The position numbers and the translations under genes were made by a program. This document shows, piece after piece, positions 9,451 to 32,600 of a DNA stretch of 64,000 nt; position 1 is the first letter of the stretch, and each line of letters starts with the position of its first letter. The notes below the pieces were generated by a model. That model did not search any database and was not told the origin of the DNA. It saw nothing but the letters and a program-made list of their open reading frames with translations. The stretch lies in contig OZ246414.1 of the NCBI GenBank assembly GCA_965231125.1, forward strand, positions 81,739-145,738, read 5' to 3'. This DNA comes from an uncultured Gammaproteobacteria bacterium (lineage in GTDB: Bacteria; Patescibacteriota; Microgenomatia; Woykebacterales; RBG-16-39-9b).

Positions 9451-9568
9451 AAGTTCAGCCATTATACCAGAAAAATAAATTAACTTGACTAGACAAGCAA
9501 GCAGTAGTATTATTTGTTCCACAAGGACAGAGGTTTGTTTGGTCGGGCAAAAAGGAAGGAAGGTGCAC

Positions 9569-10051: not shown

Positions 10052-10216
10052 ACATCGACGATCGGTACGTAAGCGCTCCTTTCCTTCCTTTCCGGTCGGA
10101 ACTGAGGCGCTCTAGCTAACTACTTAACCCGCTGGTTATTAAGTAGTTCAGTAACCAAGAACCAGCAAGTTTTCATCAGGACGTCCTGGCCCGACCACCA
10201 ACCTCGTCCTGTCTCA

Positions 10217-10256
10217 GCCCACCTTGTGTTTTCACCAGGTGGGCTTTACTTTTTTA
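10217..10256. terminator. bidirectional terminator hairpin
   Basis: AGCCCACC-14nt-GGTGGGCT flanked by A/T runs, between convergent genes. Confidence 0.5.
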
Positions 10257-10716: not shown

Positions 10717-10783
10717 GTTTTTGCCTTTCAGCTTACTCTCTGGTAAAATTATACGCGTTTTTGAGGTAAAAAAGTAAATTCTT

Positions 10784-10859
10784 GCCCCCGTAGCTCAGTG
10801 GATAGAGCGCAACGTTGCGGACGTTGAGGCCGGAGGTTCGAATCCTCTCGGGGGCACCA
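10784..10859 (+). tRNA. tRNA-Arg (anticodon read as GCG)
   Basis: 76-nt cloverleaf with anticodon stem CAACG/CGTTG and loop TTGCGGA. A GCG anticodon is unusual for bacteria, so the reading should be confirmed. Confidence 0.65.
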
Positions 10860-10860
10860 T

Positions 10861-10950
10861 GGAGGGATGCCGGAGTGGTTTAACGGCCAGGTCTCGAAAA
10901 CCTTGGGTCCCGTAAGGGGCACGGAGGTTCAAATCCTCCTCCCTCCGCCA
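10861..10950 (+). tRNA. tRNA-Ser (anticodon CGA), type II
   Basis: GGAGGGATGCCGGAGTGG..CTCGAAA loop..long variable arm..GGTTCAAATCCTCCTCCCTCCGCCA. Confidence 0.75.
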
Positions 10951-11019
10951 CTAATATTGTCCCAGTAGCTCAGTGGAAAGATCGCTACGCGCTCTGCGAC
11001 CACTTCGTAGTCTAAAAGC

Positions 11020-11095
11020 GCAAAAACATGTCCCTGTGGCTCAATGGATAGAGCACCAGTTTCCGGAACTGGGGATTGAGAGTTCGAATCTCTCC
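11020..11095 (+). tRNA. tRNA-Arg (anticodon CCG)
   Basis: GTCCCTGTGGCTCAATGGATAGAGC..CCAGT TTCCGGA ACTGG..GAGAGTTCGAATCTCTCCAGGGACACCA. Confidence 0.8.
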
Positions 11096-11123
11096 AGGGA
11101 CACCACTACCTTCTTAATATCAT

Positions 11124-11762
11124 TTAGCTGGCCATTTTGTGGAATAATTTTGAAAGGGTTTCGCCCAGACTGTCCATCCAAGAAGTTTTTGGAACTTCGC
11201 GGTAGGGCAAATATCTAAGCAGCGCGGATTTAACTTTTTCTTTTTCTTTGGGGTCAATAATCATTATTAACCTAGCTGGAAAATTTACTAAAGTGTCTAT
11301 GTTAAGGACGGTTGACCCGTGTTTTTCGGTAAACCAAAAATCATAAAGTTCTTCCCAAAGATAGTTGTGAGTGCCCGTGATAATACCTTGATTGGTAATT
11401 TTATGATTAAGGTTATCTGGTGGAACGGAAGCCAAAACGTAAGCTAAAAAGGCTATCGCCAAAACGGGCGCAATTATGAAAAACTCCCTAACAAAAACCA
11501 GAATTAGAATAATTAAAATTGTCAGCAAGACAACGTACATAAGCCATTTTTTCCCTCGCGGAATAAAAACGTGGGCGGGGGAGGCCCACTCATACAAGGT
11601 TTTTACCTCAAACTCGCCCTCTCCCTCCTGACCTTCAAGTTCAGCTATTTTTGAGTGAAGACTATCAAGTTGTTCTTTTAACCCTGCGATTTGGTTTTCT
11701 TTGCCAGCTTGAGGGTTTGGAGAAGGGTTTCTCTTAAAAAACCGTTTTTGAGCAGACGCCAT
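11124..11762 (-). CDS. hypothetical membrane protein with N-terminal coiled coil
   Basis: N-terminal coiled coil (KEQLDSLHSKIAELEGQEGE), then two TM segments. Confidence 0.4.
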   Translation of the reverse strand: MASAQKRFFKRNPSPNPQAGKENQIAGLKEQLDSLHSKIAELEGQEGEGEFEVKTLYEWASPAHVFIPRGKKWLMYVVLLTILIILILVFVREFFIIAPVLAIAFLAYVLASVPPDNLNHKITNQGIITGTHNYLWEELYDFWFTEKHGSTVLNIDTLVNFPARLIMIIDPKEKEKVKSALLRYLPYREVPKTSWMDSLGETLSKLFHKMAS

Positions 11763-11845
11763 ATATTTTTATGATACTACTAAATTTGCGCTTTTCCAAG
11801 AGCCGTTGAATTTAACCAGCCTTTTTGTTAGAATTTGCACACTCT

Positions 11846-11935
11846 GGAGGGGTCGCATAGCTGGTCCATTGCACGGGTTTGCTAAACCCGCGAGCCTTTT
11901 GGCTCACGTGGGTTCGAATCCCACCCCCTCCGCCA
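11846..11935 (+). tRNA. tRNA-Ser (anticodon GCT), type II
   Basis: GGAGGGGTCGCATAGCTGG..CGGGT TTGCTAA ACCCG..GGGTTCGAATCCCACCCCCTCCGCCA. Confidence 0.8.
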
Positions 11936-12025
11936 GGAGAGGTGGCCGAGTGGTTTAAGGCGACGGTCTTGAAAACCGTTTCCCGAGTAATCGGGACGGG
12001 GGTTCGAATCCCTCCCTCTCCGCCA
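11936..12025 (+). tRNA. tRNA-Ser (anticodon TGA), type II
   Basis: GGAGAGGTGGCCGAGTGG..ACGGT CTTGAAA ACCGT..GGGGGTTCGAATCCCTCCCTCTCCGCCA. Directly abuts the previous tRNA. Confidence 0.8.
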
Positions 12026-15751: not shown

Positions 15752-16321
15752 TCAGTTTAACCCTCCGCGTTTTCTCTTTTGACTCAGCAAATTTATTATT
15801 GTTTTCTGAACCAAGTTTGGGTTTGGAATAGCCGTAAACTCAAAACTAGGATTTTCACCGGCGGTCTCAATCACCAAATCCCCATAATTAAATAGAAGCT
15901 GGGCTACCCCGCCCCTTTTTTGAGTTACATCTTGAATGTTATCGATCGTTGTAGACGATATTTGCTTATAAAAAAGGTTAAAAAAATCAACGTCGACTAT
16001 TCTTTTATTAGTCACGATATAAACATTAAAAAACCAAACAAGAAACCTTTGGAATGCAAAGGCAAAAACAAATAAATACCAAGATACAATAAGTATAAGT
16101 TGGGTGCTGGCTGTCAAATTGAAACCTTTAAAGGTGTTGTCTCCCGTAAACACCAGTTTTAACGCTGGTGGAATTAAAATAAGGATGGCCGTTAAAACAA
16201 TCCACCAAAAGTTTGTAAAAAAATGCGCCCGGGAAAAAACAACCACCTCTTCATCATCCGCTTGGGTTTCAAAATGAGGCAGTTTCTTGGCTTCTGTATC
16301 TTCGCTGGCGGCCGCGCTCAT
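15752..16321 (-). CDS. bacterial PH-domain (YdbS/YdbT-like, DUF304) membrane protein
   Basis: Two TM segments followed by a bPH_2-like C-terminal domain. Confidence 0.45.
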   Translation of the reverse strand: MSAAASEDTEAKKLPHFETQADDEEVVVFSRAHFFTNFWWIVLTAILILIPPALKLVFTGDNTFKGFNLTASTQLILIVSWYLFVFAFAFQRFLVWFFNVYIVTNKRIVDVDFFNLFYKQISSTTIDNIQDVTQKRGGVAQLLFNYGDLVIETAGENPSFEFTAIPNPNLVQKTIINLLSQKRKRGGLN

Positions 16322-18193: not shown

Positions 18194-19333
18194 TTGTCAC
18201 TTGTTACTTACTGGCTGATAAGTTTGACAACCCCTACCAAACCAGCTACGATTAAGCTAATGTCCTTGCCCAAAACCAAGATACTGTTTTTACCCGTATC
18301 GCTCCTATTAATAGCTTTTTACCTTACTTTTTTCATTTCCCCCGCATACGCTGGGTGCAATATAACCACCCCAGAGGGCGATTATTTCACTCCAGGTACT
18401 GCTATTAACTTTAAAATAACAGGTGTATTACCAAACCACAGTATAAAACTTGATCTTATTCAAGTCCACGGCGGTAATACTATCGATACAAAAACGCTCA
18501 CATCAGATCAAAACGGGGAAGCGAGTTTCACCTATAACGCTCCACCGGCGTTGGGAGATTATGTATGGATAGCTGACAACGATCCGAGAGATTGTACACC
18601 TGGCATCGGCAGTTCCCCTGGATTTACTGTTTCTAATCAAAGCTCTGGGGGTATTAATTTTGTAACTTTCCCGGCGCAAGTCGATAATGGGCGAACAACC
18701 ATAAGTATTAAAGTCACCGGCCTAGACCCAAATAGCTGTTATATAGTAAAAAAGGTTGACGGTTTTACCGGCAATATAGTAACCCAACATAACAGCCCCA
18801 TCGACAACGTCTGTCAGGATTTTACACAACTAGGTATGACGATAATTAAAAGCGACGATCAAGGTGCCCTCCAAATTGAAAATATCTGCGAAAATATGGA
18901 AGGCGCAAGAACCGATTGCACTAATCCTTTTGACGCCAATAAAACTTACTCTTTCCAAGTATATAAGTTCAAGTCTGGTTGTCATGTTATTGATCTACTA
19001 GATTGTTTTACAAAGGTCGGTGATCCCCTAAGTTTTACTGTCTCCAAAAGTATCAAATTTCCTCCAACAGAAGATCGAGGGAAAGAACTGTCAGGAGATA
19101 CTCGCAAATTTGTAAATACACTTGTTAGTTTCGGCATCGGGATTGCTGGAGGAGTCGCGTTTTTACTACTCATATACGGTGGGTTTAAATTTATCTTTAG
19201 CCTAGGCAATCCTGAAGCAGTGCAGCAGGGAAGGGAAATTATAACCGCTGCTCTAATTGGTCTAATTGTGGTTGTTTTTTCAGTTTTTCTTTTACGATTA
19301 GTCGGGATAAGTATTTTAGGTCTACCCTTATGA
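18194..19333 (+). CDS. T4SS pilin-domain protein with large N-terminal extracellular domain
   Basis: The C-terminal 70 aa carry the two-helix pilin module (GGFKFIFSLGNPEAVQQGREIITAALIGLIVVVFSVFLL). The start may instead be the internal Met at 18260. Confidence 0.55.
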   Translation: MSLVTYWLISLTTPTKPATIKLMSLPKTKILFLPVSLLLIAFYLTFFISPAYAGCNITTPEGDYFTPGTAINFKITGVLPNHSIKLDLIQVHGGNTIDTKTLTSDQNGEASFTYNAPPALGDYVWIADNDPRDCTPGIGSSPGFTVSNQSSGGINFVTFPAQVDNGRTTISIKVTGLDPNSCYIVKKVDGFTGNIVTQHNSPIDNVCQDFTQLGMTIIKSDDQGALQIENICENMEGARTDCTNPFDANKTYSFQVYKFKSGCHVIDLLDCFTKVGDPLSFTVSKSIKFPPTEDRGKELSGDTRKFVNTLVSFGIGIAGGVAFLLLIYGGFKFIFSLGNPEAVQQGREIITAALIGLIVVVFSVFLLRLVGISILGLPL

Positions 19334-20772
19334 GAACACCAACCTCAAGGAGAATTTTATCTTTTCTAGCCTTAGTCCTTGCCCTGCTTATTTTGAATCT
19401 AAATCAAACGTCTGGTCACAGAGTTTATGCGGCTGATCCTTGTCCCGTAGCGTTTCCCGCTTTTGACGGTACTGAGGGAACTACTACTACCGCCGATGGA
19501 GGGATAATAAAATCTTCCAACCCAATTCCAGAGGGTGCAAGTATTAAGGTTTTTTATAAAGCGTCAAGCGCTGTTCAATCCCAATCCCAACCAAATGATT
19601 GGATAGTAAGGGTAGATAGCGATATTGGTACAAGTGAGGCCCTAAGTGATGTGACCGTAGGGCCTCCTAATCCAGAACATTTGTGGTCCGCTTCGCTTGG
19701 TGCTACTATCCCATCTGGTGATCATTCCGTTTCGCTTATTTACCGCCCTACTGGAACTGTATGCGACACCCAAGGTTTCCACGTTTCGCTAACAGCTGAT
19801 TCTTCGAAGGGAATTTTTTCTGGTATTCTAGATCCTCTTCACGGGCGTTTTTCTAGCTTTGGGGAAATTGCCTCAAAACTTGCACCTTTTATACTGGCTC
19901 TTGGTGGAATGGTTGCTTTTCTCTTCCTTATCTGGGGTGGTATTAAATACATGCTGTCTCAAGGAGACCCAAAAGCAGTAACATCCGCCCGCAGCACAAT
20001 TGTTTCCGCCATAATTGGTTTAATAATACTGGCCTCCGTTTTTGTAATTCTCCAGCTCATAAACCTCATATTCAAAATTCCGGTGTTAGGCGCAACTTCG
20101 AACCAAGTGTTTGCCGCTAACTGTTCTTACCAACTATCAACTAATCAGATCGCCTACAACGGATCATTCAATGTAACAACCACTGTCCAAGGTAGTAATT
20201 ATTACACAATATCTTTCAATCCTGGTAACAATAACAAGATATTTATGGCCAACATTGCTGAAACATCCCACACCGAAACTATAAACATAGGTACCTTTTA
20301 CACCAACCCTCCTACTCAGATTACAGTGACAGTAGGACATGGGATTCCCTCCCAACATCCCGCGCCGTGTGATTTGCAAGGGAGTAATGAAGTAACCATA
20401 ACCCCTGCTCCCAACCCAACCGGGGGAAACAATAACGACGGTAACGACAACAGTACAACTGCGAAAGGTGGAATAAACATCGGAGATGCCTTCAAATTCG
20501 GAACTAAAGGTGTCAAAGACGTGTTTCCAAACTTTGGGGTGTTATTAACTAGTGTGGTTAATTTCGCTATAGCCGCAGCCGGTTTAATTTTCTTCTTCAT
20601 GCTAGTTTGGGGCGGCATGCGCTATATGCTTGCTAGAGGTGACGACAAACTAATCGTGGACGCAAGACAAACAGTCACCAATGCGGTGATAGGTCTCTTG
20701 ATAGTTGTTGCTTCTTTCGCGATAATTAAGTTAATAGCTTTAGCAACCGGGGCTCATATTTCTATTTTTTAA
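19330..20772 (+). CDS. tandem-duplicated T4SS pilin-domain protein (two pilin modules)
   Basis: Pilin modules at about aa 185-240 (GGIKYMLSQGDPKAVTSARSTIVSAIIGLIIL) and aa 425-480 (GGMRYMLARGDDKLIVDARQTVTNAVIGLLIVV). 4-nt overlap with the upstream gene. Confidence 0.55.
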   Translation: MRTPTSRRILSFLALVLALLILNLNQTSGHRVYAADPCPVAFPAFDGTEGTTTTADGGIIKSSNPIPEGASIKVFYKASSAVQSQSQPNDWIVRVDSDIGTSEALSDVTVGPPNPEHLWSASLGATIPSGDHSVSLIYRPTGTVCDTQGFHVSLTADSSKGIFSGILDPLHGRFSSFGEIASKLAPFILALGGMVAFLFLIWGGIKYMLSQGDPKAVTSARSTIVSAIIGLIILASVFVILQLINLIFKIPVLGATSNQVFAANCSYQLSTNQIAYNGSFNVTTTVQGSNYYTISFNPGNNNKIFMANIAETSHTETINIGTFYTNPPTQITVTVGHGIPSQHPAPCDLQGSNEVTITPAPNPTGGNNNDGNDNSTTAKGGINIGDAFKFGTKGVKDVFPNFGVLLTSVVNFAIAAAGLIFFFMLVWGGMRYMLARGDDKLIVDARQTVTNAVIGLLIVVASFAIIKLIALATGAHISIF

Positions 20773-20774
20773 TT

Positions 20775-21104
20775 ATGCCAGCTTCTAGTGCATCTTCAAG
20801 TAGTTCAAGTCTGCCGGTAATCGGTCATATAAAGCCGCCTTCTGGTTTCCCCATCGATCCTAACACTATTATCTCCGGCCTAATAAGCTTGATAATAGGG
20901 TTTGCTGGGTTAGTTTTCTTTGCAATGCTCGTTATTGGTGGGTTTCGGTATTTAACTGCCGGTGGGGACGAAAAAGCCGCCCAGGAAGCCCGTAAAACTC
21001 TAACCAACGCCGGGGTTGGGTTGATTATAATTGTGGCCGCGTTTTTAATCGCCCAACTACTCTTTCAAGTGTTTGGGCTGGAATCTTTAGTTAAGATAGG
21101 CTAA
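20775..21104 (+). CDS. TrbC/VirB2-like T4SS pilin
   Basis: 109 aa with a TM1-GGFRYLTAGGDEKAAQEARKTLTNAGVGLIIIVAAF-TM2 topology. Confidence 0.6.
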   Translation: MPASSASSSSSSLPVIGHIKPPSGFPIDPNTIISGLISLIIGFAGLVFFAMLVIGGFRYLTAGGDEKAAQEARKTLTNAGVGLIIIVAAFLIAQLLFQVFGLESLVKIG

Positions 21105-21108
21105 GCTG

Positions 21109-21591
21109 ATGTTTAAAAAATTTCTGCTGGGCAACGGATTAAACAAAATATCAACTTTCCTGATGACCGGGGGCATTTTGTTTCCGATAATTAACAGCTT
21201 GGCTGTAAAAACAATTTACGCAGCGCCAACAACTCCTACATCCGCTACCGCCAGCTCTACCGTCAGCGCAAGTTCGTCGGCAACCTTCCATATTCCAAAC
21301 CTAATCCCTTTTAAAAATCTTGGTGATCTTTTCCAAGTCCTTTTGAGTCTGGCTTTTTTTGCAGCGGGGCTCGCTTTTTTTCTCAATTTAATTGTCGGCG
21401 GCTTTCAGTGGATTTCCTCTGGTGGAGACCCCAAAGCCTTGCAAACCGCCAGAGGCCGAATAATGAACGCTTTTGTAGGATTGATTATAGTGGTTGCCGC
21501 CTACGCAATTGCCTTAATAGTCCAAACTGTGTTGGGAATAAGAATAGTCAGTGGTTTTTGTATTCGTTTGCCGGGCGGAACATGTCCTTGA
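21109..21591 (+). CDS. TrbC/VirB2-like T4SS pilin with Cys-x2-LPGGT-x-Cys tail
   Basis: GGFQWISSGGDPKALQTARGRIMNAFVGLIIVVAAY and a C-terminal FCIRLPGGTCP. Confidence 0.6.
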   Translation: MFKKFLLGNGLNKISTFLMTGGILFPIINSLAVKTIYAAPTTPTSATASSTVSASSSATFHIPNLIPFKNLGDLFQVLLSLAFFAAGLAFFLNLIVGGFQWISSGGDPKALQTARGRIMNAFVGLIIVVAAYAIALIVQTVLGIRIVSGFCIRLPGGTCP

Positions 21592-21664
21592 CAGATTGGC
21601 ACTTGCCAAAGTATTTTTTATCTGTATATAATTATGTTAGAGGAAAGGTGGGGGTAGACAGTCT

Positions 21665-22063
21665 ATGAAAAAACTCGTCTCTGCCACAATAGTAAGTGTT
21701 GCTACATTCTTTAGTTTTGCGGGAGCTGCATTCGCGGTGGATTCCCCAAATATACGGGGTTTTGATTCAAACAGCATTCCTTTCCCAAACTTAGGTAAGT
21801 TGATAAGTAATATTCTCTCGTTATTATTTTTCTTCGCCGCCCTACTTGCATTTCTTTTTATTATCTTAGGTGGTATCCAATGGATTACTGCCGGTGGTGA
21901 CAAAGTCGCTGCTCAATCGGCCCGAGATAGAATTACAGCGGCGGTCATTGGTTTGGTAATAGTAGTCGCCGCTTTCGCCATAACCGTTATTCTCTCGAAG
22001 GTCTTGGGAATTAATCTCTTCGAATACAACTTCCCCGGCACATCCACTACCGCCGGCGCCTAA
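21665..22063 (+). CDS. TrbC/VirB2-like T4SS pilin
   Basis: Signal peptide plus GGIQWITAGGDKVAAQSARDRITAAVIGLVIVVAAF. Confidence 0.6.
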   Translation: MKKLVSATIVSVATFFSFAGAAFAVDSPNIRGFDSNSIPFPNLGKLISNILSLLFFFAALLAFLFIILGGIQWITAGGDKVAAQSARDRITAAVIGLVIVVAAFAITVILSKVLGINLFEYNFPGTSTTAGA

Positions 22064-22076
22064 AACTCTAAAAACG

Positions 22077-23255
22077 CTAATTTGAGAATCCGGTAGTTCC
22101 AGTAAGAATAGTAAAGTAGATTTTTGAGACAGGTAGACCAGTAAGTAATGGGTAGTAAAAAGCAAACAGCCCAAAGCACGAAATTATAAACCCCGCAAGT
22201 AAAAACTTTTTCCCCTCAAAATTCTCTTCTATCATTTTACTAAGTAAAATTACCCCAAACGGCAGCGCTGGGAGCAGATAATACTGTAGAGTGTTGTGGT
22301 AAGCGAAAAACCAAGGGAGCCAAAAGCAGGCAAAGGCTCCCAGCAAAAAGAGCTTTTCAGACGTAAAGTCTCTTTTTTTTATCACCAAAATAATTGCCCC
22401 CAGAATTCCCCAAAAAATGGCGGGGTTAAAGAGAAAAATAACGCTGCGGACTGTGTTTCCGACAGTTTGACCCAAATAAGGAAGCGGTGGATCCAAAAAC
22501 CAAAGCCAGGGAGGATAACCCAAGTTGTCTTTGGATTTTAGAAAAAGATGGTAATTAGCCATTTGCCACTGCAGGTGAAAAAGGCTGTCAAGAGTGTGGT
22601 TTTTTAAATAAAAACTATACGAGGCGAAGTAGACTAACAAAACAACTGTTATTAACTGAGCAATTTTCAACAGGGAACGGGGTTTCTTCTTAAGAAGATA
22701 AAATCCCAAAGCAAAAATTAGTAAAAATAGACCGCTCCATTTTGACGATATTGCCAGCCCAAAGAAAAACCCGCTTAATAATAAATCTTTGGAACTTTCG
22801 CTTTTAAGAAATTTCCAAAAGAAATAGCCAGCTGCCAGGCTAAAAGCAGCCACGTAAATTTCGATAGTACCGAGCCGTGAACTTACAAACCAACCAAACT
22901 CGGCTGTTAAAAAGAGGCTTGCCAAAACTGGAATAAACTTTCCGCCAAACATTTTTTCCGCCAGCAGGTAAATAAATACGACCCCCAAACTCCCGACTAA
23001 AACTTCTGGTATTCGCCAACCCCAAACGTTGTCACCAAAAACATGGATACTTGCCGCCATAAAAAGTTTTGCGACTGGCGGGTGTTGGAAATTAGCTAAA
23101 AAATCCCCGTGCAGGTAGGCACGGGCCGCCGGTATGTAAAAAGCGCCCTCGTCAAAATAAGCGCTTTGGGGAGAATTTAGTAGAAAAAGTTTCGTCAGAA
23201 AGTTAAAGAGAAAAATCAGCGTAAGGAATACAAAGTCAAAACGAGCAAATCTCAT
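22077..23255 (-). CDS. GT-C fold glycosyltransferase (GT39/ArnT/PMT-like), polytopic membrane protein
   Basis: 392 aa with at least 10 TM helices and the N-terminal loop pattern typical of dolichyl/undecaprenyl-phosphate-sugar dependent glycosyltransferases. Interrupts the pilin array on the opposite strand. Confidence 0.5.
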   Translation of the reverse strand: MRFARFDFVFLTLIFLFNFLTKLFLLNSPQSAYFDEGAFYIPAARAYLHGDFLANFQHPPVAKLFMAASIHVFGDNVWGWRIPEVLVGSLGVVFIYLLAEKMFGGKFIPVLASLFLTAEFGWFVSSRLGTIEIYVAAFSLAAGYFFWKFLKSESSKDLLLSGFFFGLAISSKWSGLFLLIFALGFYLLKKKPRSLLKIAQLITVVLLVYFASYSFYLKNHTLDSLFHLQWQMANYHLFLKSKDNLGYPPWLWFLDPPLPYLGQTVGNTVRSVIFLFNPAIFWGILGAIILVIKKRDFTSEKLFLLGAFACFWLPWFFAYHNTLQYYLLPALPFGVILLSKMIEENFEGKKFLLAGFIISCFGLFAFYYPLLTGLPVSKIYFTILTGTTGFSN

Positions 23256-23341
23256 TAACCAAATTCTAGCATAATTTAGAGGTTTCTAGACTCAGGTGTC
23301 TTTAATTGACAGACTTCTCATTATTACTTAAAATCTAGTTA

Positions 23342-23746
23342 ATGCCGCCACCAAAGAAATTCGGGCCGTTATTATCTGCGATGCTATTTCTTTCAACCGC
23401 AGCCCCAATCTACGCTCAAGCCAAACTAGTTGACACTTCGCCCGGCTACGCTCCTCTAACAGAGCTGGAAACAATCTTCGGCAACGTTTTAAATGTCGTG
23501 ACGCTTTTAGCTGGATTTGCAGTTCTGCTTATGCTCATTATTGGGGCTTTTCGCTACATGGCGGCTCAAGGCGATCCAAAAGCAATAGGTTCCGCAAGAA
23601 GTCATATTACTTGGGCCTTTATTGGTCTTTTCTTCATTGTCGCGGCTTGGCTTGTATTACTCTTCGTCGCTCAATTTACCGGGGTTAATCTAACGCACTT
23701 TTGCGTTCAGCTTCCTGGTGGGACTACTTGTAAGCTTCAACGTTAG
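23342..23746 (+). CDS. TrbC/VirB2-like T4SS pilin with Cys-x2-LPGGT-x-Cys tail
   Basis: Signal peptide, GAFRYMAAQGDPKAIGSARSHITWAFIGLFFIVAAW and a C-terminal FCVQLPGGTTCK. Confidence 0.6.
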   Translation: MPPPKKFGPLLSAMLFLSTAAPIYAQAKLVDTSPGYAPLTELETIFGNVLNVVTLLAGFAVLLMLIIGAFRYMAAQGDPKAIGSARSHITWAFIGLFFIVAAWLVLLFVAQFTGVNLTHFCVQLPGGTTCKLQR

Positions 23747-24392: not shown

Positions 24393-24956
24393 TTAAAAAA
24401 TGTCTGGTTTTTTATCTTGCAAGCGATCAATCTGCGCCAACCTAGACTCAATATTTATTAAAGTATCGGGTGCAAAATACCATTGTTCGCTCACGCTCTG
24501 ACTTATCTCATCAACAACCTGACCCCTACCTTTGTTCGACAAAAGTAAAATTTTAAATCCCACATAATCAGGACTATAAACTAGGTCCGCGCCATCATCA
24601 AGCACTTTAATCCCAGCCGCTAAAGACGGTTTTACTTTTACTAAAATAACTATACTGTCTTTTACGTAAACCTTCGCTTCGTCACTACCAATTTTATATT
24701 TAAATAGTAGCATCCTGGTTTTTGCAAGAGTATAAGTTTGGTTTGGCTTTCCCAGGATCTTATTTAAACTCTCAACCGAAGTTTTTCCCGGCACAACGCC
24801 TCGCCAACCGTAACCAACTCCCCTAAAAAATATTAGATAAGTCAAAATTAGTAGGGCCAGGAGACCCAAAATTATTGGTGCTAAGACTTTTAGATTTTCG
24901 GACAGTTTAGTGAGGGTAAACATAACCAGCAAAAATATTATCTCTAACCCAAGCAT
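24393..24956 (-). CDS. hypothetical membrane protein
   Basis: Two N-terminal TM helices. Sits between the lytic transglycosylase and the gene at 23743. Confidence 0.35.
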   Translation of the reverse strand: MLGLEIIFLLVMFTLTKLSENLKVLAPIILGLLALLILTYLIFFRGVGYGWRGVVPGKTSVESLNKILGKPNQTYTLAKTRMLLFKYKIGSDEAKVYVKDSIVILVKVKPSLAAGIKVLDDGADLVYSPDYVGFKILLLSNKGRGQVVDEISQSVSEQWYFAPDTLINIESRLAQIDRLQDKKPDIF

Positions 24957-26364
24957 ACTGGTGCGGGTACTCGCCCTGCAGATTTACTTGAATGCCAGAA
25001 CCAGAGGTATACGTACCATCCGCAACGTACCAAGCGTCGGATTCCGCTACTGATTCATTGTAACAGGTGATTGGTATATCCCCATCTACAGTGCAATCCG
25101 CTCCTCCTAAAGCCGCAGACGGGTAACTTTTTATTAAACCGCCATCATCTTCGTAAACATGCGCATTTTCAAAGCTCTGAAGAAGGCCACTATTGCGACC
25201 CATAATCACATGGGTAGATTCGTGAGCCAAAACAAAGATCCGTGTAGACTGGGATGTCGCTGCCGATTGTGCCAAGTATATTCCTGGATCAAAGCCGGAT
25301 GGGTTCACTTCGCTGTATCTTGCTGTCCATTTATGCAAAACTACGGCCCCGCCTTGACTACAAAGCAATTGAACAAATTTTGCCGATTGGGTAATGAAGC
25401 CGATTGCCTGCAGCTCCGAAGCCTGATCATCTGACGTCCAACTTCTGTCAAACTGGTAACACGCCTGCCCCCCCGGACCAGGCGAAACTCCCAAATCTTG
25501 TTTCCTTTGGTAAAACTGCCAAACGCTGTCACAATAATGGACATCAGGGTACCTTGGGTCCACACACGCCCCTAAATACGATCCCGCAACTGAATCCACT
25601 AAACTTTTATCCCAAGCGGAACTACTTCCTGAATAATTGTATTTTGTAAAATGTCCCGAGGTGCATTCTTCGACGGCGGCTGCGTCGCTTGAAGAAATAC
25701 TGTCACATTTAATTTTCCAGGCGGCCGCGTAAATAGAGTCCTCAATATTACAAATGTTCGGGGTCCGGCTTTGTCCAGTAGCAATATTCACAGCGTTTTT
25801 ATACCTATCCCATGTACTTGGTAAAAACTGCATCGGTCCTTGGGCGTTATCAACTGATACAGCACACCCTGGCATCACCGCCCCAGGCGCGCTATACTGC
25901 GTTATTTGAGACTCACTTAATATCATTGCTCCTCCCAAATTTTCACTAAGACCAATGCCGTTTAAAACTCCAGCCGGCACCTTCGCCCAACTCGCTGCTT
26001 GAAGAATAATCCCTTCCAATACTATAGAACAATCGTTGCGAGTGCCATCCCCATTTAAATCGTCAGGGCTCAAGTTTGTCTGACAGTAATTTTGGTTAAC
26101 TCCTAATCCGCCTCCCGGCGATGCATGGGCGGCCCCACCACCTGAACCAAGAATCCCAACTCCAACTAAAATTACTACTATTAGAATTACGGTAAATATA
26201 ACAACACCCATCACCGCCAAAAATCCAGGTAGCCATGGGGCCACCGCACCAATAGCGGCTGATATACCCGACCAAGCCGCTTGTCCGAAACGAGCGGCTT
26301 GATAAGCATCGCTAAGTGTACTAAGGGGGCTTTTTTTGTTTTGTTGGTCTTCTTGTTGGGCCAT
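24907..26364 (-). CDS. secreted bifunctional cell-wall hydrolase: SLT-domain lytic transglycosylase plus HExxH domain (VirB1-like role inferred)
   Basis: N-terminal TM. SLT motifs LSENLGG ... AQGPMQFLPSTWDRY ... NIEDSIYAAAWKIK. C-terminal Cys-rich region with HESTH (HExxH). Confidence 0.55.
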   Translation of the reverse strand: MAQQEDQQNKKSPLSTLSDAYQAARFGQAAWSGISAAIGAVAPWLPGFLAVMGVVIFTVILIVVILVGVGILGSGGGAAHASPGGGLGVNQNYCQTNLSPDDLNGDGTRNDCSIVLEGIILQAASWAKVPAGVLNGIGLSENLGGAMILSESQITQYSAPGAVMPGCAVSVDNAQGPMQFLPSTWDRYKNAVNIATGQSRTPNICNIEDSIYAAAWKIKCDSISSSDAAAVEECTSGHFTKYNYSGSSSAWDKSLVDSVAGSYLGACVDPRYPDVHYCDSVWQFYQRKQDLGVSPGPGGQACYQFDRSWTSDDQASELQAIGFITQSAKFVQLLCSQGGAVVLHKWTARYSEVNPSGFDPGIYLAQSAATSQSTRIFVLAHESTHVIMGRNSGLLQSFENAHVYEDDGGLIKSYPSAALGGADCTVDGDIPITCYNESVAESDAWYVADGTYTSGSGIQVNLQGEYPHQYAWVRDNIFAGYVYPH

Positions 26365-26610
26365 GGCAGGTGTATTTAAATTCTATCCTTTGATAGCTTT
26401 AAAAACAATCCTTATCAAGAAGGTGTCCTTAGCTAGCCATTAAGATGGCTAGCACAGGATTCGGGAGTACCCGAATCACTTGGATTTGGTTACGGAGAAT
26501 CCTTAGTCCAAAGGACGCGGGACACTTTAAGTGTCCCATAGCCAATGTATGCTATAATATGGTGCAAAACTAGCTCTCAAACAAAACCATACTTCAGAAG
26601 GAGGAGAGAC

Positions 26611-27501
26611 ATGAAAAGGCTGCTGCCACTGGCAGCGATAACGCTTTTGGTTGTTCTGGCTTACGCTTGCGGAGCTAAGGCCAGTACGCTAAAGAGCAAC
26701 ACTAACGCAGCTTCTGGCCTAGAAGCACAAATAACGCCTTGGGAAAAAGCTCAAGACGTGGCGAATGTTTCGCCAGAGATCACCAAAGCAGAGCTTGGTG
26801 ATGGAGCAGAGCTTGCAAACGAAATTTCGTTTGCAACTCTACGTCCGTTTTACCTAGCTCAATTCACGGGACTATCCTACGACTCCAATTACCAGTGGTC
26901 CGATTGGAGTTCCGATCCGCAAGGACAGCAGTTGGCCAGTGAAATCGAGCAAGAAGGGGTGGCGAGTAAACAAGAAACGCTGGACGGTTTGTACGCATCT
27001 AGTTTCATCCGCTACCATACCGGTACACTGAGCTGGGATGGGACTTCGCTTGGTGCTTGCCCACCAGGACCGCAGCATTTGGTGATTATCACCACAATCG
27101 TGTTCGGGCAAGCCGAAGGGGCCGCTTCCTTCTTCAACAATATTGTTCTACCGGAAGACGACGGTCTGAAGGGCCAGGTGGAGGCTCACCCTACTAACGG
27201 TACCACCGGGTTCGCTTGGTTCGACGAGCAAGAGAAGCAAAACACTTGTCTCTTGCCGGTCCAAAACGATGGGATGGTGGAGACTCACTACATAACCTAC
27301 CCAAGAAAGCAGAGTATTGCCTGGGTAGTCACTGGTACTTTTGTGATCAGAGTGGTAGAGACACTCGGCACATCAACAACAGCCAATCTAACTACCAACA
27401 CTGGTGAGTCCTTTAATCCAGACCCGAACCACTCTGCTGGCAATTACGCTAGCGATCAGGAAACGGCACTGAGATCGGCTTTACCGGAATATTTCCAGTA
27501 A
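26611..27501 (+). CDS. secreted (lipo)protein, hypothetical; moderately GC-rich
   Basis: Strong SD (AGGAGGAGAGAC) before MKRLLPLAAITLLVVLAYACG (a lipobox-like AYAC). No catalytic motif. Confidence 0.5.
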   Translation: MKRLLPLAAITLLVVLAYACGAKASTLKSNTNAASGLEAQITPWEKAQDVANVSPEITKAELGDGAELANEISFATLRPFYLAQFTGLSYDSNYQWSDWSSDPQGQQLASEIEQEGVASKQETLDGLYASSFIRYHTGTLSWDGTSLGACPPGPQHLVIITTIVFGQAEGAASFFNNIVLPEDDGLKGQVEAHPTNGTTGFAWFDEQEKQNTCLLPVQNDGMVETHYITYPRKQSIAWVVTGTFVIRVVETLGTSTTANLTTNTGESFNPDPNHSAGNYASDQETALRSALPEYFQ

Positions 27502-27575
27502 CCCAAAGCGGTTCGAAATCACATCGAACCGCTTTTTCATTGACAAATAAACTCGGCATCTATAAAATTGAATTA

Positions 27576-29270
27576 ATGTCTCTGCCCAAAAGATTAATTT
27601 TAATCTTTACTGTAATTTTAATTGCGATTTCCTTTTTTAGCTTAATTCCCCTAACGCAAGCCGCCTCTTCGGCTAGCAAACCTCAGAATAATCAACCGGT
27701 AAGTTCTAATAAAATCCAACCGATACCGGCTTCTTCAAACACAAATTTTCAGTACATTCCGACACCAAATGGAAATTACCAAAACCAAGAAGTAGCCCTT
27801 GGACCTGTTGGCGATTGGTTTGCTAATCGATTTCACGACGCAATCACCTTTTTCAGTGACCCTCTAGCTCCAATAGTAAAAGCGGCTCTCTTCTGGACTC
27901 AAGACGCTGCCTACCAACAGGCGGAAGGTTGTCCTTTTGAGGATGCCCAGTGCCATAATGATCAACGCCAACAATACCTTGCCGGAACTGATATTGCCCA
28001 CCTTTCTCACCCTGGAGCGCTGGATTACGCTTCCACCCTTTTGAGTAGTAGTTTAGATCTTCCGGTCCCCCTCGACTCAAGTCAATACTTCGCCTCGATT
28101 AATCCTTTTAGCCAGGCCCATGCATCCGGGGTTGGGGACCTCGCTCAAGACCCCATCCTTCACGTCTGGCAAAGAGTCCGAAATGTTGCCTACGCTGCCA
28201 GTGCGGTGATAATGATAATTTTGGGCTTTATGATAATGCTGCGTTGGAAACTAGACCCCCGAACCTCTGTGACAATTGCAAATTCCCTGCCCCGAATAAT
28301 TGTTGCTTTACTTTTAATTACCTTTAGCCTGGCTATTGCCGGTTTAATGATTGACCTCGCCAGAATAGTCACCAACCTTGCCACTGATTTGATTCCAATT
28401 ACGCTGCGCGGGGCGATGGGGTTAGCAGTTCTCGGTTTTTTTGCAGTGGGATCTTTGGTCCTGCTTTTTACTGCTGGCAGTACTATTGCTGCGGGCCCGG
28501 CTGGCCTCAGTATCGCCTTCATTACAGTTCTTCTGCTGTCGTTGATTTTGGTGATAATAATACTAGTTGTCTTCATTGTCCTTATTTATAAAATCTTAAT
28601 GCGCTATATAACCTTCATCGTTTTGACAATTTTTGCGCCTTTCTTTTTCTTAATTGGGGCCATTCCGGGGCTGGAAGGCGTAACCGCCAGCTGGTTTAAA
28701 CGCCAAATTGCCGCCCTTCTGGCAATACCGGCCATTGCCCTGATGGTTAATCTTTCCTTTTGGATTGGTTTTTCTGGTGCTGGCAATCTACCCAATCCCT
28801 GGCAGACAGGACCGTTACCAGTTGGTATCGTTGGAAATATTTTAAACTGGACAATTCTTTCCCCGATTGTCGGGCTTGGACTTTTCTTCTTCGCCACAAA
28901 AATGCCGGATATTATTGATGAGATGTTGCAAGTTAAACCTCTCGGTGCCAGAGCCGGAATCGGCCCCGGTGCTATACTCGGCGCCCCGATCGCTGCCTTT
29001 GGAACGCTCGGAACTGTTAACAGAGGTTTTCGAACCTTCCAACAAGGAGGTATGCTTTACGGCGCTTTACAAAATGATTCCCTTCTTGGCCGCTTATACC
29101 GACCTGTGGCACGTTTTGGTAGTTCTTTCCGTAAAAACCCAAAACCAGCCTTTCCACCTGCAGCTGGTGACGCGTGGGGTCAGGGTCTAAGAGATTTTGA
29201 ACGAAGCCGACAGGCTCAAGGACAACCTAGACAGGAAGGTGAACCACCCGACAGACCCCCAGGGACATAG
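27576..29270 (+). CDS. polytopic membrane protein, VirB6/TrbL-like (inferred)
   Basis: Signal sequence, a periplasmic domain, at least six TM helices and a Gly/Pro/Gln-rich C-terminal tail. Topology and locus context match VirB6. No sequence motif confirms it. Confidence 0.4.
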   Translation: MSLPKRLILIFTVILIAISFFSLIPLTQAASSASKPQNNQPVSSNKIQPIPASSNTNFQYIPTPNGNYQNQEVALGPVGDWFANRFHDAITFFSDPLAPIVKAALFWTQDAAYQQAEGCPFEDAQCHNDQRQQYLAGTDIAHLSHPGALDYASTLLSSSLDLPVPLDSSQYFASINPFSQAHASGVGDLAQDPILHVWQRVRNVAYAASAVIMIILGFMIMLRWKLDPRTSVTIANSLPRIIVALLLITFSLAIAGLMIDLARIVTNLATDLIPITLRGAMGLAVLGFFAVGSLVLLFTAGSTIAAGPAGLSIAFITVLLLSLILVIIILVVFIVLIYKILMRYITFIVLTIFAPFFFLIGAIPGLEGVTASWFKRQIAALLAIPAIALMVNLSFWIGFSGAGNLPNPWQTGPLPVGIVGNILNWTILSPIVGLGLFFFATKMPDIIDEMLQVKPLGARAGIGPGAILGAPIAAFGTLGTVNRGFRTFQQGGMLYGALQNDSLLGRLYRPVARFGSSFRKNPKPAFPPAAGDAWGQGLRDFERSRQAQGQPRQEGEPPDRPPGT

Positions 29271-29609: not shown

Positions 29610-32600
29610 CTAAGCGGCTACAATCACAAATCCGCTATTGGGTTCTGGCACTGCGCTCGTAACTAGGTTGTTGTGGCCCATATAGACCATCTTGATGTAC
29701 CTGATGTAACGCTGCTTCTCCTCCTCTCCTATGTTCCTAATCGCTTCCCGTAGAACGTTATTGATTTGGTCCCAGCGATATTTGTCGACGATCATTTCCG
29801 CAAGCTTCATAGAGTATCGGGAGTCAATTTTTGCCCAGCGGGCAATAGTGACAGTCAGGCGATCAACGTCCATCTCCCTCATCGCCTTGCCTCTCTGGAC
29901 TCCATCTTGCTCTTTGAACCTAGAGAGCCACCAACTATTACCCTTTAGGCTCTTGGCGCTTTCCTTAACGAACTCGAGTTCGTCTGTCTCACTCCAGTGA
30001 CCAAGCTCCCGCGCCCTGGCTTTACCGAGACTGTTGTCGAACACTCGGTTCCACCAAACCCATTCCCCATCTCGAACAAATTTGGACTCTGACTCAGCAT
30101 CGTCCCCGATTCGGAAGGGGTAACCCTCGCTGATCCAGGAACCGTAGGTGCCTCCGGAGAAAGCGTGGGCCCGACCCAAAAGGGTGAGCTCCATCTCCCT
30201 CTCTTCCTGGTAAGCGATCGCTGGTCTGCGCAGATCCCAAATCATTCGCTCCATACCGATCCGGCGACCACCAGGAAGCCCGAGATCGAATCTGCCCTTC
30301 GGAATTACGATGGTGGGTAGGCCTTCGGTGTTCCGCCGGACTACGGGGACCACCTGCTGCACCCGGTTAGTCATCGCTTCTTGCAAAGCGTACTGAACCC
30401 TAGCCCGCTTTGGCTCCTCGGGCTGGTGAGCCCACATTGCGTACATGAAGTTACGCGCTGCAGTGGCGTTGTCGTAGTTCACCCGAATGAAGCTATCATA
30501 GCCGTACGTATTTGGGTTGGACAAGCGCACGTTAAGCACCGCCAACGCATTCATCTGACCTAGAATCGCCTCGTTCTGCAGCCAAACGGTGATAGGGTCT
30601 CGGACGGCAAACTCGATGGTACGGGTCCAATCGTCCTCGTCTCGGTAGTTGCGTACCCTGCTGGTGAACTCCTTAACTAGCGTGTCAAAGTCGGGCATCG
30701 CCCCATCACCAGCCGCCGAGTTTAGCCCTCGCTCGCGCTTGAGCTGATCCAAGGCGACTGCCATTGCCTCGGCGTACAAAGTTGCCTGAGCACCGTCGTG
30801 AGGCATCTTCTGCCAGGGTTCCTTGAAGAACCAGGCCCAGTCAAGTAGCGAGCGACGAAGCTCAACCCTTTCCTGGGACACCTCCACGAAACGCTCAAAT
30901 ATCTCGTTTCCGAGAACGTACGCTTCCCTTTCGTCCCGAGTCGGTTCTTTGATCTCCGAGAAGACAGCCTGCCATTCCTCATGAACAAGCTTGTCCGGTA
31001 TCTCTTCTGGACTAGGGATCGGCGCAAAAGCCTCCCCCCGATGCAGTTTGCCCAGAAGGTGGGCCTGGAACCGAGCGCACCGATGCAGAATCATGTACCG
31101 CCGGTCGCAGGTATAATCGATGCTCTCCCACTCACCACCGAAGTTGTTCTGGACATACCGAGCTACGTCCGCATCTTCCATATTCCAACCCTCACGTTTG
31201 GTCCGCATAGAGCGGGCCATCTGCCAGAATTGAATACGGTGCAGACGCTTTCTGCGTCGCTCGATATTTTCCGCCCTGTAGCGGAAGGTGGAGTGATCCA
31301 CCACTGGTTCCCAGCTACCGTAGGAAGGCTGGTAAACTAGCTTCCCTGTCTCCTTATCAACCTTGGATTTACCAGGACGGTATACCCAAGTCACGGTGGA
31401 TGGTTGCTCCACGTACACCGCGAGCTGCACGAGCTCCTTGAGAGCCTGTGCCTGGCTGACTGGATCCGAGGTTTGCGCCCCAAAAATATCCGCCAGAAGC
31501 CAAGGCTCGTTCATCTGCTCGCTTGGATACGAACGGTCCATGTTTTGGTCCACGAAGCTATCCTGATCGCGGAGCCAACGTGCCCACCATTTCTTTAGGG
31601 CTTTGCGACCCTTTGTCTTTTCGAGCTCTATCATCTCTTCTTCGGTGGGTATGCGGAATCCGCTAACTACCTCACCAGTTTTAGGATCGCGTTTCTGCTT
31701 CCGACGGACCGTTTCTTCGAAGTATTTCCACGTCGCCCCGTAACCGAAGTACTCGGTTCCATCCTCATCCGTATAGTAGAGGATTTTCTCCGAACACACT
31801 TTGTGAGCGAGCATGGTGCGGCCTTTTATGTTCAGGTCGCCCACGTCGATTTCGTACTTCTCAGTGTGCGGATTGTAGTGCAGGCCTTCGGGAAATTCCT
31901 GAAAGACCCCTTCACGAACGTTTGCACCATTGCGGTAATACTCCGCTTCCACGCGGCTGCGGAGTGCCTCTTTTTCAGCTTCAGACAGCTCTTCGAGCTC
32001 CCCGGTTTCGGGGTTCTCCACGAAGTAATACCACTGATCTGGTTCCTTCGGGCGAAGCTTCAGCCGAAGCGCGCGGCGGTAGACGTTGTCTTTCTCCCGC
32101 CATTCATCCATTGGTGCGTTGGGTTTGTGCGGTGGAGGGACTTTATTCAACCCTTCGTTGTTCACTGGAAGGTCTCCAGCTCCAACAGCAGGGTAGAACA
32201 CTCGATAGCGAGTAAAGTCCTCTCTCTTCGCGATATCCTCCGCGTGCAACTTGCGCATAACTTCCAGCCGGGAAGAGCCAGGGTTCTTTTTGAGAGCCCG
32301 ACGCATCCGGTGGTAGCTACGCGACACACGCCGAATTTCCCGGTGGTACATCCAGTTAGGATAGCGTCCACCGGGACCAATGTCTTGACGAACTCTAGCG
32401 TGGTTCAGCTCGGGCGAAAGAACGAACATGTTCGTGTCGATACGAACCTGCCCAAGAGAAACCTCAGAGTTCTCTATTTCTTGTTGAAGTTTCTGTACTT
32501 CTTCCCACATGTGCTTTTGTTTTACGGTGTCCGAGATTCCAAACGAGAGAGTGCTGATGAGAAACGGGTTTTTTCCCTTACGCTCAATAGCGTAGCATAG

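Follow-up and report, generated by a model that had tools for sequence, protein, structure and literature searches.

Arrays of VirB2-like pilin genes that accompany chromosomal type IV secretion systems (T4SS) of Patescibacteria are the closest described counterparts of the locus treated here, a series of six pilin genes (p1 to p6) in a 64-kb stretch of contig OZ246414.1 (assembly GCA_965231125.1), which is called the window in the following. In Southlakia epibionticum ML1, a member of the Saccharibacteria, about six divergent and structurally similar VirB2-like pilins occur together with chromosomal VirB3/PrgI, TrsD and VirB4 proteins, as they do in the window, and a relaxase is recognisable neither there nor among the window ORFs scanned (PMC10633639; PMC12857230). 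The Southlakia pilin series was found to be essential for epibiotic growth, and the T4SS was described as lacking recognisable coupling or relaxase proteins (Wang 2023; PMC10633639). A survey of 3,035 Patescibacteria genomes with the Pfam models PF18895 and PF04956 reported 441 arrays of 2–11 pilins in 383 assemblies, which were commonest in Microgenomatia and Saccharimonadia, showed a mean paralog identity of 25% (maximum 54%) and had T4SS genes close to dnaA but hardly any relaxases (Quinonero-Coronel 2025; PMC12102498). Monoderm T4SSs are normally without pili (PMC12102498; PMC10633639), and a 2025 review took the six-pilin array of Southlakia as evidence that such a system may build a pilus after all (PMC12857230).

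We interpret the array in the window, with a probability of about 0.8, as the VirB2-like pilin genes (PF18895) of a chromosomal, oriC-proximal T4SS in a Microgenomates-group Patescibacterium whose closest relatives are Candidatus Woykebacteria, working by the mechanism proposed in the Discussion. This interpretation is carried by the family membership of the proteins, their predicted hairpin topology, the linkage to T4SS genes, the conserved orthogroups, the Ig-like ectodomains and a conserved junction motif. Arrays of this kind form a class published between 2023 and 2025, and the array is not itself a discovery; domain-fused or multi-module pilins, internal processing sites and glycosyltransferases are not mentioned in PMC10633639, PMC12102498 or PMC12857230.

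Compared to Southlakia ML1, the window represents a Microgenomatia/Woykebacteria-like lineage, its array lies 13 kb away from the VirB4 gene instead of inside the cluster, and it adds genes for a 357-amino-acid (aa) pilin with predicted immunoglobulin (Ig)-like domains, for a pilin of 480 aa with two modules and, embedded in the array, for a GT-C glycosyltransferase. It shares the low paralog identity (29–55% in the window) and the location of the T4SS near dnaA with the other arrays of Patescibacteria, but whereas the survey treats these as variable repertoires (PMC12102498), the window shows a conserved order, positional orthologs, shuffled ectodomains, multi-module pilins and a junction resembling a signal peptidase site. 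Agrobacterium VirB2 and IncP TrbC resemble the window pilins in their small size, their two hydrophobic helices with a short basic loop in between and their genetic association with VirB3 and VirB4, as well as in a signal peptide, which is putative in the window proteins; they differ from the window, which belongs to a monoderm host and has multiple paralogs, large ectodomains and concatenated modules. The Mbov_0395 and Mbov_0397 proteins of Mycoplasma integrative conjugative elements (ICEs) combine a pilin-like protein of two transmembrane helices (TM) with a monoderm, MPF-FATA-type T4SS of Mollicutes, but these mobile conjugative elements hold a single pilin copy, and the window proteins score below the equivalog cutoffs of the families. 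Tandem amplification of VirB2-like genes in host-associated bacteria with reduced genomes is also known from Bartonella and Anaplasma (cited in PMC12102498), where the paralogs of these diderm animal pathogens are thought to serve antigenic variation, in contrast to the ancient ordered orthogroups of a monoderm epibiont lineage in the window. Finally, the archaeal Ced/Ted DNA-import pili (PMC9905601; PDB 8dfu) consist of VirB2-like hairpin pilins, use a VirB4-like ATPase and are non-conjugative import systems of cells with a single membrane. The window VirB4 weakly matches CedB (E = 1.6e-14) but is far closer to the bacterial CD1110 family, the fold match to 8dfu was not significant (E = 2.5), and no CedA-like protein was identified in the window.

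The pilin gene array

The six genes are located on the plus strand between positions 18260 and 23746 (Table 1) and together hold seven copies of a two-helix module of about 75 aa, one each in p1, p3, p4, p5 and p6 and two in p2. All six open reading frames (ORFs) are present, and metagenome gene callers call the same genes on three other contigs containing the locus. A hidden Markov model (HMM) built from the seven modules and run against the six-frame translation of the window returned these seven copies with E-values of 1e-27 to 1e-33 and no eighth one, the next best match having E > 1. All six proteins exceeded the gathering score of PF18895 (T4SS_pilin; 26.6 bits) with 27.2–55.4 bits (E = 6e-15 to 4e-6), and the isolated modules scored 27.8–48.5 bits. 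A first-pass annotation made from the sequence had described an array of six genes with seven modules, encoding T4SS pilins of TM1-loop-TM2 topology, and had suggested a search with pilin-family HMMs as a check. The module HMM, the Pfam search and the gene callers bear out the array, and the six PF18895 matches, the hydropathy profiles, the hairpins in the structure models and the T4SS genes nearby support the identity of its products. The module profile matched 72,795 cluster representatives at E ≤ 1e-3.

The modules of the window are 29–55% identical to each other, with a mean column identity of 50% in the seven-module alignment and six invariant columns (G, G, R, A, G, L). Their core, GG(F/I/M)x(Y/W/F)...G(D/N)xKA...AR...A.IGL, recurs much as proposed before, except that p1 has GNPEA instead of GDxKA and p6 has GA instead of GG. 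The genes p1 to p4 overlap or are 2–4 nucleotides (nt) apart, with the start codon of p2 overlapping the stop codon of p1 (ATGA), and p5 follows after a gap of 73 nt. The description as a tandem array holds for the six genes as such but not for the stretch between p5 and p6, which is interrupted by the GT-C gene on the minus strand. Five of the six ORFs are as first annotated, while p1 had been started at a TTG codon at 18194; its start is most likely the ATG at 18260 because the gene callers use this position and the promoter-like site at 18224–18252 falls inside the longer ORF. Promoter-like sites were also found in the gap between p4 and p5 and upstream of p6. A strong Shine-Dalgarno sequence occurs just once in the array; this sequence, GAGGAAAGGTGGGGG, lies 3' of the promoter-like site at 21603–21632 and before p5, again judged by consensus match. 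The probable major pilin is p5, as it alone combines a promoter-like site of its own with a strong Shine-Dalgarno sequence and also has the most conserved module.

Topology and extracellular domains

VirB2-type pilins have their N-terminus outside, a basic loop in the cytoplasm and their C-terminus outside. Kyte-Doolittle hydropathy analysis yielded two hydrophobic helices per module, and AlphaFold2 modelled the modules as helical hairpins with a predicted local distance difference test score (pLDDT) of about 85–94. One hairpin was obtained in p1 (H279-312/H318-352, above 90 at an overall pLDDT of 74) and two in p2 (residues 177–209/214–248 and 402–434/439–473). By inspection of the n-, h- and c-regions, putative signal peptides were assigned to five of the six proteins, with uniform ends of the type [A/V/I]-[Y/F]-A, namely AYA↓G (p1), VYA↓A (p2), IYA↓A (p4), AFA↓V (p5) and IYA↓Q (p6); the h-region of p4 is weak. 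The remaining protein, p3, has no signal peptide and would therefore need N-tail insertion.

As predicted in the first-pass annotation, two of the genes are fused to large extracellular domains. The ectodomain of p1 was modelled as two beta-sandwich, Ig-like domains with eight cysteines, and Foldseek retrieved Ig-like and adhesin-extender folds for it (6xi3, KIR/LILR receptors) with a probability of 1.0. Those of p2 appeared beta-rich and were poorly modelled (pLDDT < 50 for the beta domains). In addition to the eight cysteines of p1, there are two in each of the two p2 ectodomains and two each in the C-terminal tails of p4 and p6, and none in the modules. All cysteines of the six proteins appear to be paired and confined to predicted extracellular parts, which fits disulfide-stapled surface domains and lends support to the disulfide-closed loop that had been suggested for the tails.

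A common tail F-C-x2-LPGGT-x-C had been assigned to p4 and p6. It is present in p6 (FCVQLPGGTTC), but the tail of p4 (FCIRLPGGTCP) has no residue between the threonine and the cysteine. Tails of the form F-C-x(3-9)-C recur among p4-type and p6-type orthologs (SGFCIPTPGPEGAC, SGFCIQRPC, KFCVGSNC, TFCIGDFC); the p4 orthologs bear SGFC...C tails and some p6 orthologs F-C-x4-C tails, and LPGGT itself is confined to this genome among the orthologs compared. Gene conversion was rejected as the origin of the two LPGGT tails, since their codons differ at almost every position. We also rejected LPGGT as a sortase signal because it does not conform to LPxTG and is followed by only 2–7 residues before the stop codon; no sortase family was matched among the window ORFs scanned.

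Conservation and evolution of the array

The order of the array genes is repeated in seven related loci (L084, L086, L094, L101, L103, L107 and L113). The recurrent arrangement starts on the minus strand with a 636-aa gene without known function and a SpoIID gene, continues with a pilin carrying a big ectodomain (344–566 aa), a double-module pilin (187–289 aa) and small pilins of about 100, 135 and 130 aa, and is followed on the 3' side by genes for a Big_5 protein, a 485-aa protein and a polytopic protein. Each paralog of the window has its best match in the pilin at the equivalent position of the other arrays. In the closest array, L084, the modules of the orthologs are 68–82% identical to those of the window, compared to 29–55% between the paralogs of the window itself, and the regions preceding the modules share only 23–30% identity. 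The most conserved module is that of p5 (82% to its L084 ortholog), and p5 orthologs in 10 arrays are 55–72% identical over nearly their full length. The p3 gene represents an extra small pilin of the window's lineage: it has an ortholog in L084 (68–72% identity), and outside the L084 lineage its best matches are mostly to the double-module gene, while within the window its module is nearest to modules 2b (45%), p4 (46%) and p5 (45%). Given these positional orthologs and a module identity above that between paralogs, the paralogs are therefore ancient and have been retained as a set.

The sequences favour a fixed, heteromeric repertoire of distinct subunits over ongoing expansion or recent diversification, with rapid evolution apparently restricted to the exposed N-terminal parts. 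The two evolutionary readings offered earlier thus fared differently: a mixed repertoire of major and minor pilins fits better than ongoing expansion, with fast evolution seen in the exposed N-terminal parts only. The other three contigs with the locus differ from the window by 0–12 substitutions in 20 kb, including one synonymous change in the array. So few changes preclude a strain-level ratio of nonsynonymous to synonymous substitution rates (dN/dS), and the other orthologs (62–82% aa identity) are too diverged for a reliable dS.

The ectodomains are related across pilin types. Homology was found between the first of the Ig-like domains in p1 and the N-terminal domain of a p2-type pilin, P0007 (38% identity, E = 7e-14), and likewise between p2 ectodomain B and the N-terminal domain of P0008, a pilin with a single module (E = 1e-10). 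Depending on the genome, one domain family thus occurs on pilins of different types, and the Ig-like domains have been shuffled between these types.

The double-module pilin p2

The first-pass annotation had recognised the two modules of p2 but had taken them for an internal duplication. Double-module proteins are in fact the rule at array position 2, and this old architecture is conserved in dozens of related genomes instead of having arisen locally. The linker following TM2 of the first module contains the motif P-x(0-2)-[AVTS]-[YFHN]-A, typically PAYA, in 21 of 22 distinct relatives, whereas shuffled linkers contained it 0.8 times on average and six times at most (of 22). The last alanine of the motif stands out from a variable stretch by a conservation of more than 80%, and the motif is the same as the predicted N-terminal cleavage motifs of these proteins. 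The geometry of the junction resembles that of a signal peptide, with TM2 running from inside to outside and preceded by the basic loop. P0008 ends two residues past the motif, and ectodomain B of the window p2 starts at position +1, its first residue aligning with the residue after the signal peptide of P0008. Three-module fusions of p1 and p2 types (P0056–P0060) have the motif at both junctions in most cases.

According to Eisenbrandt et al. (1999/2000), IncP TrbC is reportedly cut after TM2 by the signal peptidase homologue TraF. TrbC thus offers an earlier example of a cut where the p2 junction lies. We consider it plausible from the motif and its geometry, at slightly less than even odds, that a signal peptidase cuts p2 into two pilins. 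More tentatively, the p2 orthologs and the three-module fusions could be pilin polyproteins in which TM2 of every upstream module acts as an internal signal and a cut by a signal peptidase I or a TraF-like enzyme releases subunits in 1:1 stoichiometry. Cleavage at P-[A/V/T]-[Y/H/F]-A may then make the C-terminus of one pilin and the N-terminus of the next, and position +1, whether N-terminal or internal, may be a hotspot for insertion or exchange of Ig-like domains. In a wider sense, modules concatenated up to 11 times may constitute an undescribed class of tandem pilins.

By database count, single polypeptides contain up to 11 PF18895 modules, and a stricter recount gave up to nine. The tandem-module set (P0053–P0198) includes P0160 (1147 aa), P0190 (1382 aa), P0123 (966 aa) and P0053 (820 aa) and shows at least three styles, with plain linkers of 5–30 aa, with one cysteine pair per linker throughout and a large Cys-rich C-terminal domain, or with the AxA junction of the p2-related proteins.

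The embedded glycosyltransferase

The GT-C (PMT) gene between p5 and p6 occurs in only five related pilin loci and is an insertion specific to the window's lineage. In L001, one of the near-identical loci (otherwise 99.94% identical), the loss of 1 nt at 22600 causes a frameshift by which the gene is split. Ser/Thr-rich stretches were found in p3 and p4 of the window only and are absent from their orthologs in L084, although L084 has the same PMT gene. O-glycosylation of Ser/Thr-rich pilin linkers by the PMT/GT-C protein is kept as a weak possibility; it is weakened because these linkers do not track with the PMT gene. L001 also carries a G-to-stop change at 16144 in the minus-strand ORF 15752–16321, by which a membrane protein with a bPH_2 domain, encoded upstream of SpoIID, is truncated. 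These two inactivating changes are found among only 13 differences between L001 and the window and may equally be assembly errors.

T4SS genes and genomic neighbourhood

The window is chromosomal, as it contains seven tRNA genes, the genes for transfer-messenger RNA and smpB, dnaG, dnaA-dnaN-recF, rnpA-yidC and groES/EL. Some 10–15 kb downstream of the array it codes for a VirB3-like PrgI family protein, a coiled-coil protein, a TrsD/TraD-like protein and a VirB4-like ATPase (Table 1). The VirB4 protein passed the cutoff of NF045971 and is of the monoderm type; it also matched the Pfam TraG P-loop/AAA_10 families. It is 85% identical to the VirB4 of a metagenome-assembled genome (MAG) of Candidatus Woykebacteria, and its nearest relatives (85–70% identity) belong to this group and other Microgenomates-group Patescibacteria. 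For comparison, we used its 80 best genomic relatives, most of them labelled Patescibacteria and some carrying other or unspecific MAG labels. The TrsD-like gene lies directly upstream of virB4, overlaps it and is present in 73 of these 80 VirB4 loci; a BLASTP comparison of its product with the N-terminus of VirB4 was not significant. Pilin arrays are located 8–10 kb upstream of VirB4 in eight further loci, and flanking genes are held in common. Both the TrsD-like protein and VirB4 showed matches below the cutoff to NF045975 (Mbov_0397), the ATPase family of the Mycoplasma ICEs, and the pilin-like family of the same elements (NF045849, Mbov_0395) was matched by p6 (E = 3.6e-9) and p3 (E = 5.5e-8), again below the equivalog cutoff. 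These matches hint that a pilin-like component already belonged to monoderm MPF-FATA-type systems.

The polytopic protein encoded at 27540–29270 is a candidate VirB6 analogue, as tblastn found it in 28 VirB4-centred and nine pilin-centred loci, and it co-occurs with VirB4 and pilin arrays. No Pfam or NCBIfam family was assigned to the ORFs 24907–26364, 26545–27501, 27540–29270 and 29610–33113, and the first of them also had no match in the PDB. A Pfam scan of about 47 ORFs of the window turned up no family of relaxases or coupling proteins, and the window likewise showed neither a VirB5 nor a TraF-like gene.

Several neighbouring features deserve mention. The minus-strand ORF 24907–26364 codes for a membrane-anchored protein of 485 aa that is kept beside the arrays and contains the lytic-transglycosylase-like motif MQFLPSTW and a zincin-like HESTH motif; at about the equivalent position in L084, a Peptidase_M23 protein is annotated. 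The protein may be a VirB1-like cell-wall hydrolase of the T4SS. The minus-strand ORF 29610–33113 has the pilin and VirB6-like genes on one side and the PrgI-VirB4 block on the other and lies where the GC content of the window is highest (0.556 vs. about 0.43). It codes for a highly charged soluble protein of 1167 aa, with homologs in only two of the 80 VirB4 loci, and could represent a lineage-specific insertion or an effector. The dnaA gene (40766–42448) lies 2.3 kb beyond virB4, and the cumulative GC skew reaches its minimum at 38–40 kb, adjoining recF-dnaN-dnaA (38425–42448). This is consistent with a replication origin directly beside virB4, as found in many Patescibacteria by the 2025 survey (PMC12102498).

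Further upstream in the window, two paralogous hydrophobic ORFs of 90 aa (1095–1367 and 2038–2310, both on the plus strand), which are identical in 75 of 90 residues and about 940 bp apart, match no Pfam family and are unrelated to the pilin module. A dense tRNA cluster at 9361–12025 contains four tRNA-Ser and two tRNA-Arg genes, with two of the tRNA-Ser genes abutting at 11846–12025. The longest ORF for dnaG (7566–9452) includes at its 5' end the tRNA-Ser gene at 9361–9450, which is on the same strand, and the true dnaG start is therefore further downstream.

Table 1. Features of the pilin array and the T4SS gene region in the window. Pfam scores of pilins refer to PF18895; signal peptide ends (↓, cleavage site) are putative.
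Feature	Position	Strand	Evidence and details
Promoter-like site TTGACA-17-TACGAT	18224–18252	+	Upstream of p1; consensus scan only
p1, ectodomain-fused pilin, 357 aa	18260–19333	+	33.8 bits (gathering score 26.6); signal peptide ends SPAYA↓G (aa 31); module aa ~281–357 (nt 19100–19330)
p2, double-module pilin, 480 aa	19330–20772	+	55.4 bits in two stretches; signal peptide ends HRVYA↓A (aa 34); ectodomain A with Cys38/Cys145; module 2a aa ~177–254 (nt 19858–20091); junction motif NQVFA↓A aa 258–262 (nt 20101–20115); ectodomain B aa 263–~400 with Cys265/Cys347; module 2b aa ~402–480 (nt 20533–20769)
p3, small pilin, 109 aa	20775–21104	+	47.1 bits; Ser-rich N-tail; no N-terminal signal peptide (sequence inspection)
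p4, pilin, 160 aa	21109–21591	+	27.2 bits (gathering score 26.6); weak signal peptide, KTIYA↓A; Ser/Thr-rich linker; module; tail F-C-IR-LPGGT-C-P (nt 21556–21585)
Promoter-like site TTGCCA-18-TATAAT	21603–21632	+	p4-p5 gap; 11/12 matches; consensus match only
p5, pilin, 132 aa	21665–22063	+	30.5 bits; signal peptide ends GAAFA↓V
GT-C glycosyltransferase (PMT_2/PMT)	22077–23255	-	Pfam 82.9 bits; splits p5 from p6
Promoter-like site TTGACA-17-TAAAAT	23306–23334	+	Upstream of p6; 11/12 matches
p6, pilin, 134 aa	23342–23746	+	45.3 bits; NCBIfam Mbov_0395 pilin-like, E = 3.6e-9; signal peptide ends APIYA↓Q; module; tail F-C-VQ-LPGGT-T-C (nt 23699–23731)
Polytopic membrane protein, ~8 hydrophobic segments	27540–29270	+	Hydropathy; candidate VirB6-like channel subunit
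PrgI family (VirB3-like) T4SS protein	33818–34342	+	PF12666, 46.4 bits (gathering score 27)
TrsD/TraD-like protein	35848–36564	+	NCBIfam NF041427, E = 2.4e-9, below curated cutoff of 200
VirB4-like T4SS ATPase	36554–38428	+	NF045971 (CD1110 family), 390.5 bits (cutoff 325)

Discussion

In the mechanism we propose for this system, five of the six pilins would enter the membrane via a cleavable signal peptide and the Sec/YidC route, and p3 by N-tail insertion. Each module would form a helical hairpin with both termini outside and a basic cytoplasmic loop (GGxxY..GDxKA...AR). A machine powered by VirB4 would extract the modules from the membrane and polymerise them to a pilus-like filament or an envelope-spanning conduit which contacts the host bacterium. 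Its main subunit would be p5, while p1 and p2 would act as minor subunits that display their disulfide-stapled, fast-evolving Ig-like domains as determinants of adhesion or specificity; p2 would possibly be cut into two pilins by signal peptidase at the conserved P-A-Y-A junction. Because of the lack of a relaxase or coupling protein nearby and by analogy to Southlakia, the system likely serves host interaction, either export or uptake, rather than conjugation, in line with proposals in the literature.

Several observations weigh against this interpretation or parts of it. The TrbC/VirB2-type match announced in the first-pass annotation holds with respect to hairpin topology and PF18895, but neither the pilins nor the modules of the window matched PF04956 (TrbC/VirB2; gathering score 27.9), even at E ≤ 10. 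Aligning the profile of the seven modules with Agrobacterium VirB2 by hhalign gave E = 0.12 and a probability of 0.5%, a weak match from a shallow profile; the VirB2 query had been verified against the T-pilus subunit in PDB entries 8cue/8exh. A module profile of 757 sequences aligned in register with a three-sequence VirB2/TrbC profile over 61 columns spanning both helices, again weakly (E = 0.005, probability 7%), and a tblastn search of plasmids, meant to deepen the VirB2 profile, retrieved little else than sequences of over 90% identity. The seven-module profile retrieved no pilin from the PDB sequences, only chance matches such as a designed repeat protein and HtrII. Foldseek of the p2 model yielded no match in the PDB at E < 0.1, with the archaeal conjugation pilus 8dfu as the only pilin (E = 2.5). 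The array is separated from virB4 by 13 kb with unrelated-looking genes in between. Signal peptides and cleavage sites were assigned by eye, and the case for p5 as the major pilin consists of consensus promoter and Shine-Dalgarno matches and conservation. In other lineages, 4–11 modules are concatenated by linkers of 5–30 aa without an AxA motif; the modules of proteins with at least four copies therefore probably work uncleaved. The data can be explained without a cut in p2, and cleavage should not be presumed for the family at large. Moreover, the pilus of Patescibacteria is called only "potential" in the recent review, and none has been seen in any Patescibacterium (PMC12857230). The link of the window pilins to classical VirB2 appears to be an indirect one, in which the relative P0048 reached 27.1 bits with PF04956 (E = 4.8e-6), just under the gathering score.

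The absence of an observed pilus, together with the general lack of pili in monoderm T4SSs (PMC12102498; PMC10633639), would also suit the chief alternative, an unlikely one, in which the modules are mere membrane anchors. In that case, p1 and p2 would be Ig-like surface adhesins held by a hairpin and the small paralogs would be accessory membrane subunits of the T4SS channel, similar to a stalk or an inner-membrane ring, without any filament. The proteins with 4–11 modules and very short linkers do resemble polytopic membrane proteins, and a tight helical filament would hardly have room on each subunit for ectodomains as bulky as those of p1 and p2 (150–280 aa). However, hairpins with both termini outside permit concatenated or decorated subunits at a filament surface, bona fide pilins share the topology, size and basic loop of the modules, and P0048 bridges the family to the TrbC/VirB2 model of Pfam. 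Five or six conserved orthogroups also exceed what anchors would need. A chance resemblance to pilins, with the modules belonging to unrelated small membrane proteins such as holin-like proteins or transporter fragments, can be regarded as effectively refuted. Hydrophobic hairpins align easily, and weak sub-threshold matches to the two-TM families DctQ, Htr2 and Cyt_bd_oxida_II were indeed obtained, but all six proteins exceeded the PF18895 cutoff with E-values down to 6e-15, the pilin-like family of the Mycoplasma ICEs was matched significantly, the linkage to VirB4 is conserved, the family has 72,795 representatives, and the literature assigns such proteins likewise.

The authors of PMC12102498 proposed that such paralogs are a repertoire for variation, comparable to those of Bartonella and Anaplasma. 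For the window this would mean that the paralogs take turns as major pilin, by swapping or by differential expression, to suit different hosts or to evade recognition by hosts or phages. The separate promoter-like sites for p1–p4, p5 and p6, the rapid divergence of exposed regions and the shuffling of Ig-like domains between paralog types agree with this idea, but we regard it as improbable, even more so than a role as anchors. The positional orthologs in many genomes, with module identities well above those between paralogs, indicate an ancient set that is kept whole, and the translational coupling or close spacing (2–4 nt) of p1–p4 implies their co-expression. Near-identical strains differ by one synonymous substitution in the array, no repeats or signals of recombination were seen, and the different codons of the LPGGT tails speak against gene conversion.

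A large part of bacterial diversity belongs to the Patescibacteria, which live on the surface of host cells. Few systems have been shown to be essential for this attached lifestyle, and the T4SS with its pilin series is one of them, namely in Southlakia. The locus provides the Microgenomates branch with a testable anatomy of such a system, consisting of five to six ordered orthogroups with p5 as the likely major pilin and a two-in-one pilin, and p1 and p2 with their fast-evolving, shuffled Ig-like domains are obvious candidates for host recognition. The significant similarity to the pilin-like protein of the Mycoplasma ICEs bears on the question raised in PMC12102498 of whether the pilins arrived with the monoderm T4SS or were co-opted from diderm systems. 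If the p2 junction is cleaved, T4SS pilins would for the first time be seen to arise from a polyprotein; if it stays uncleaved, concatenated pilins would constrain how the subunits are packed in a filament.

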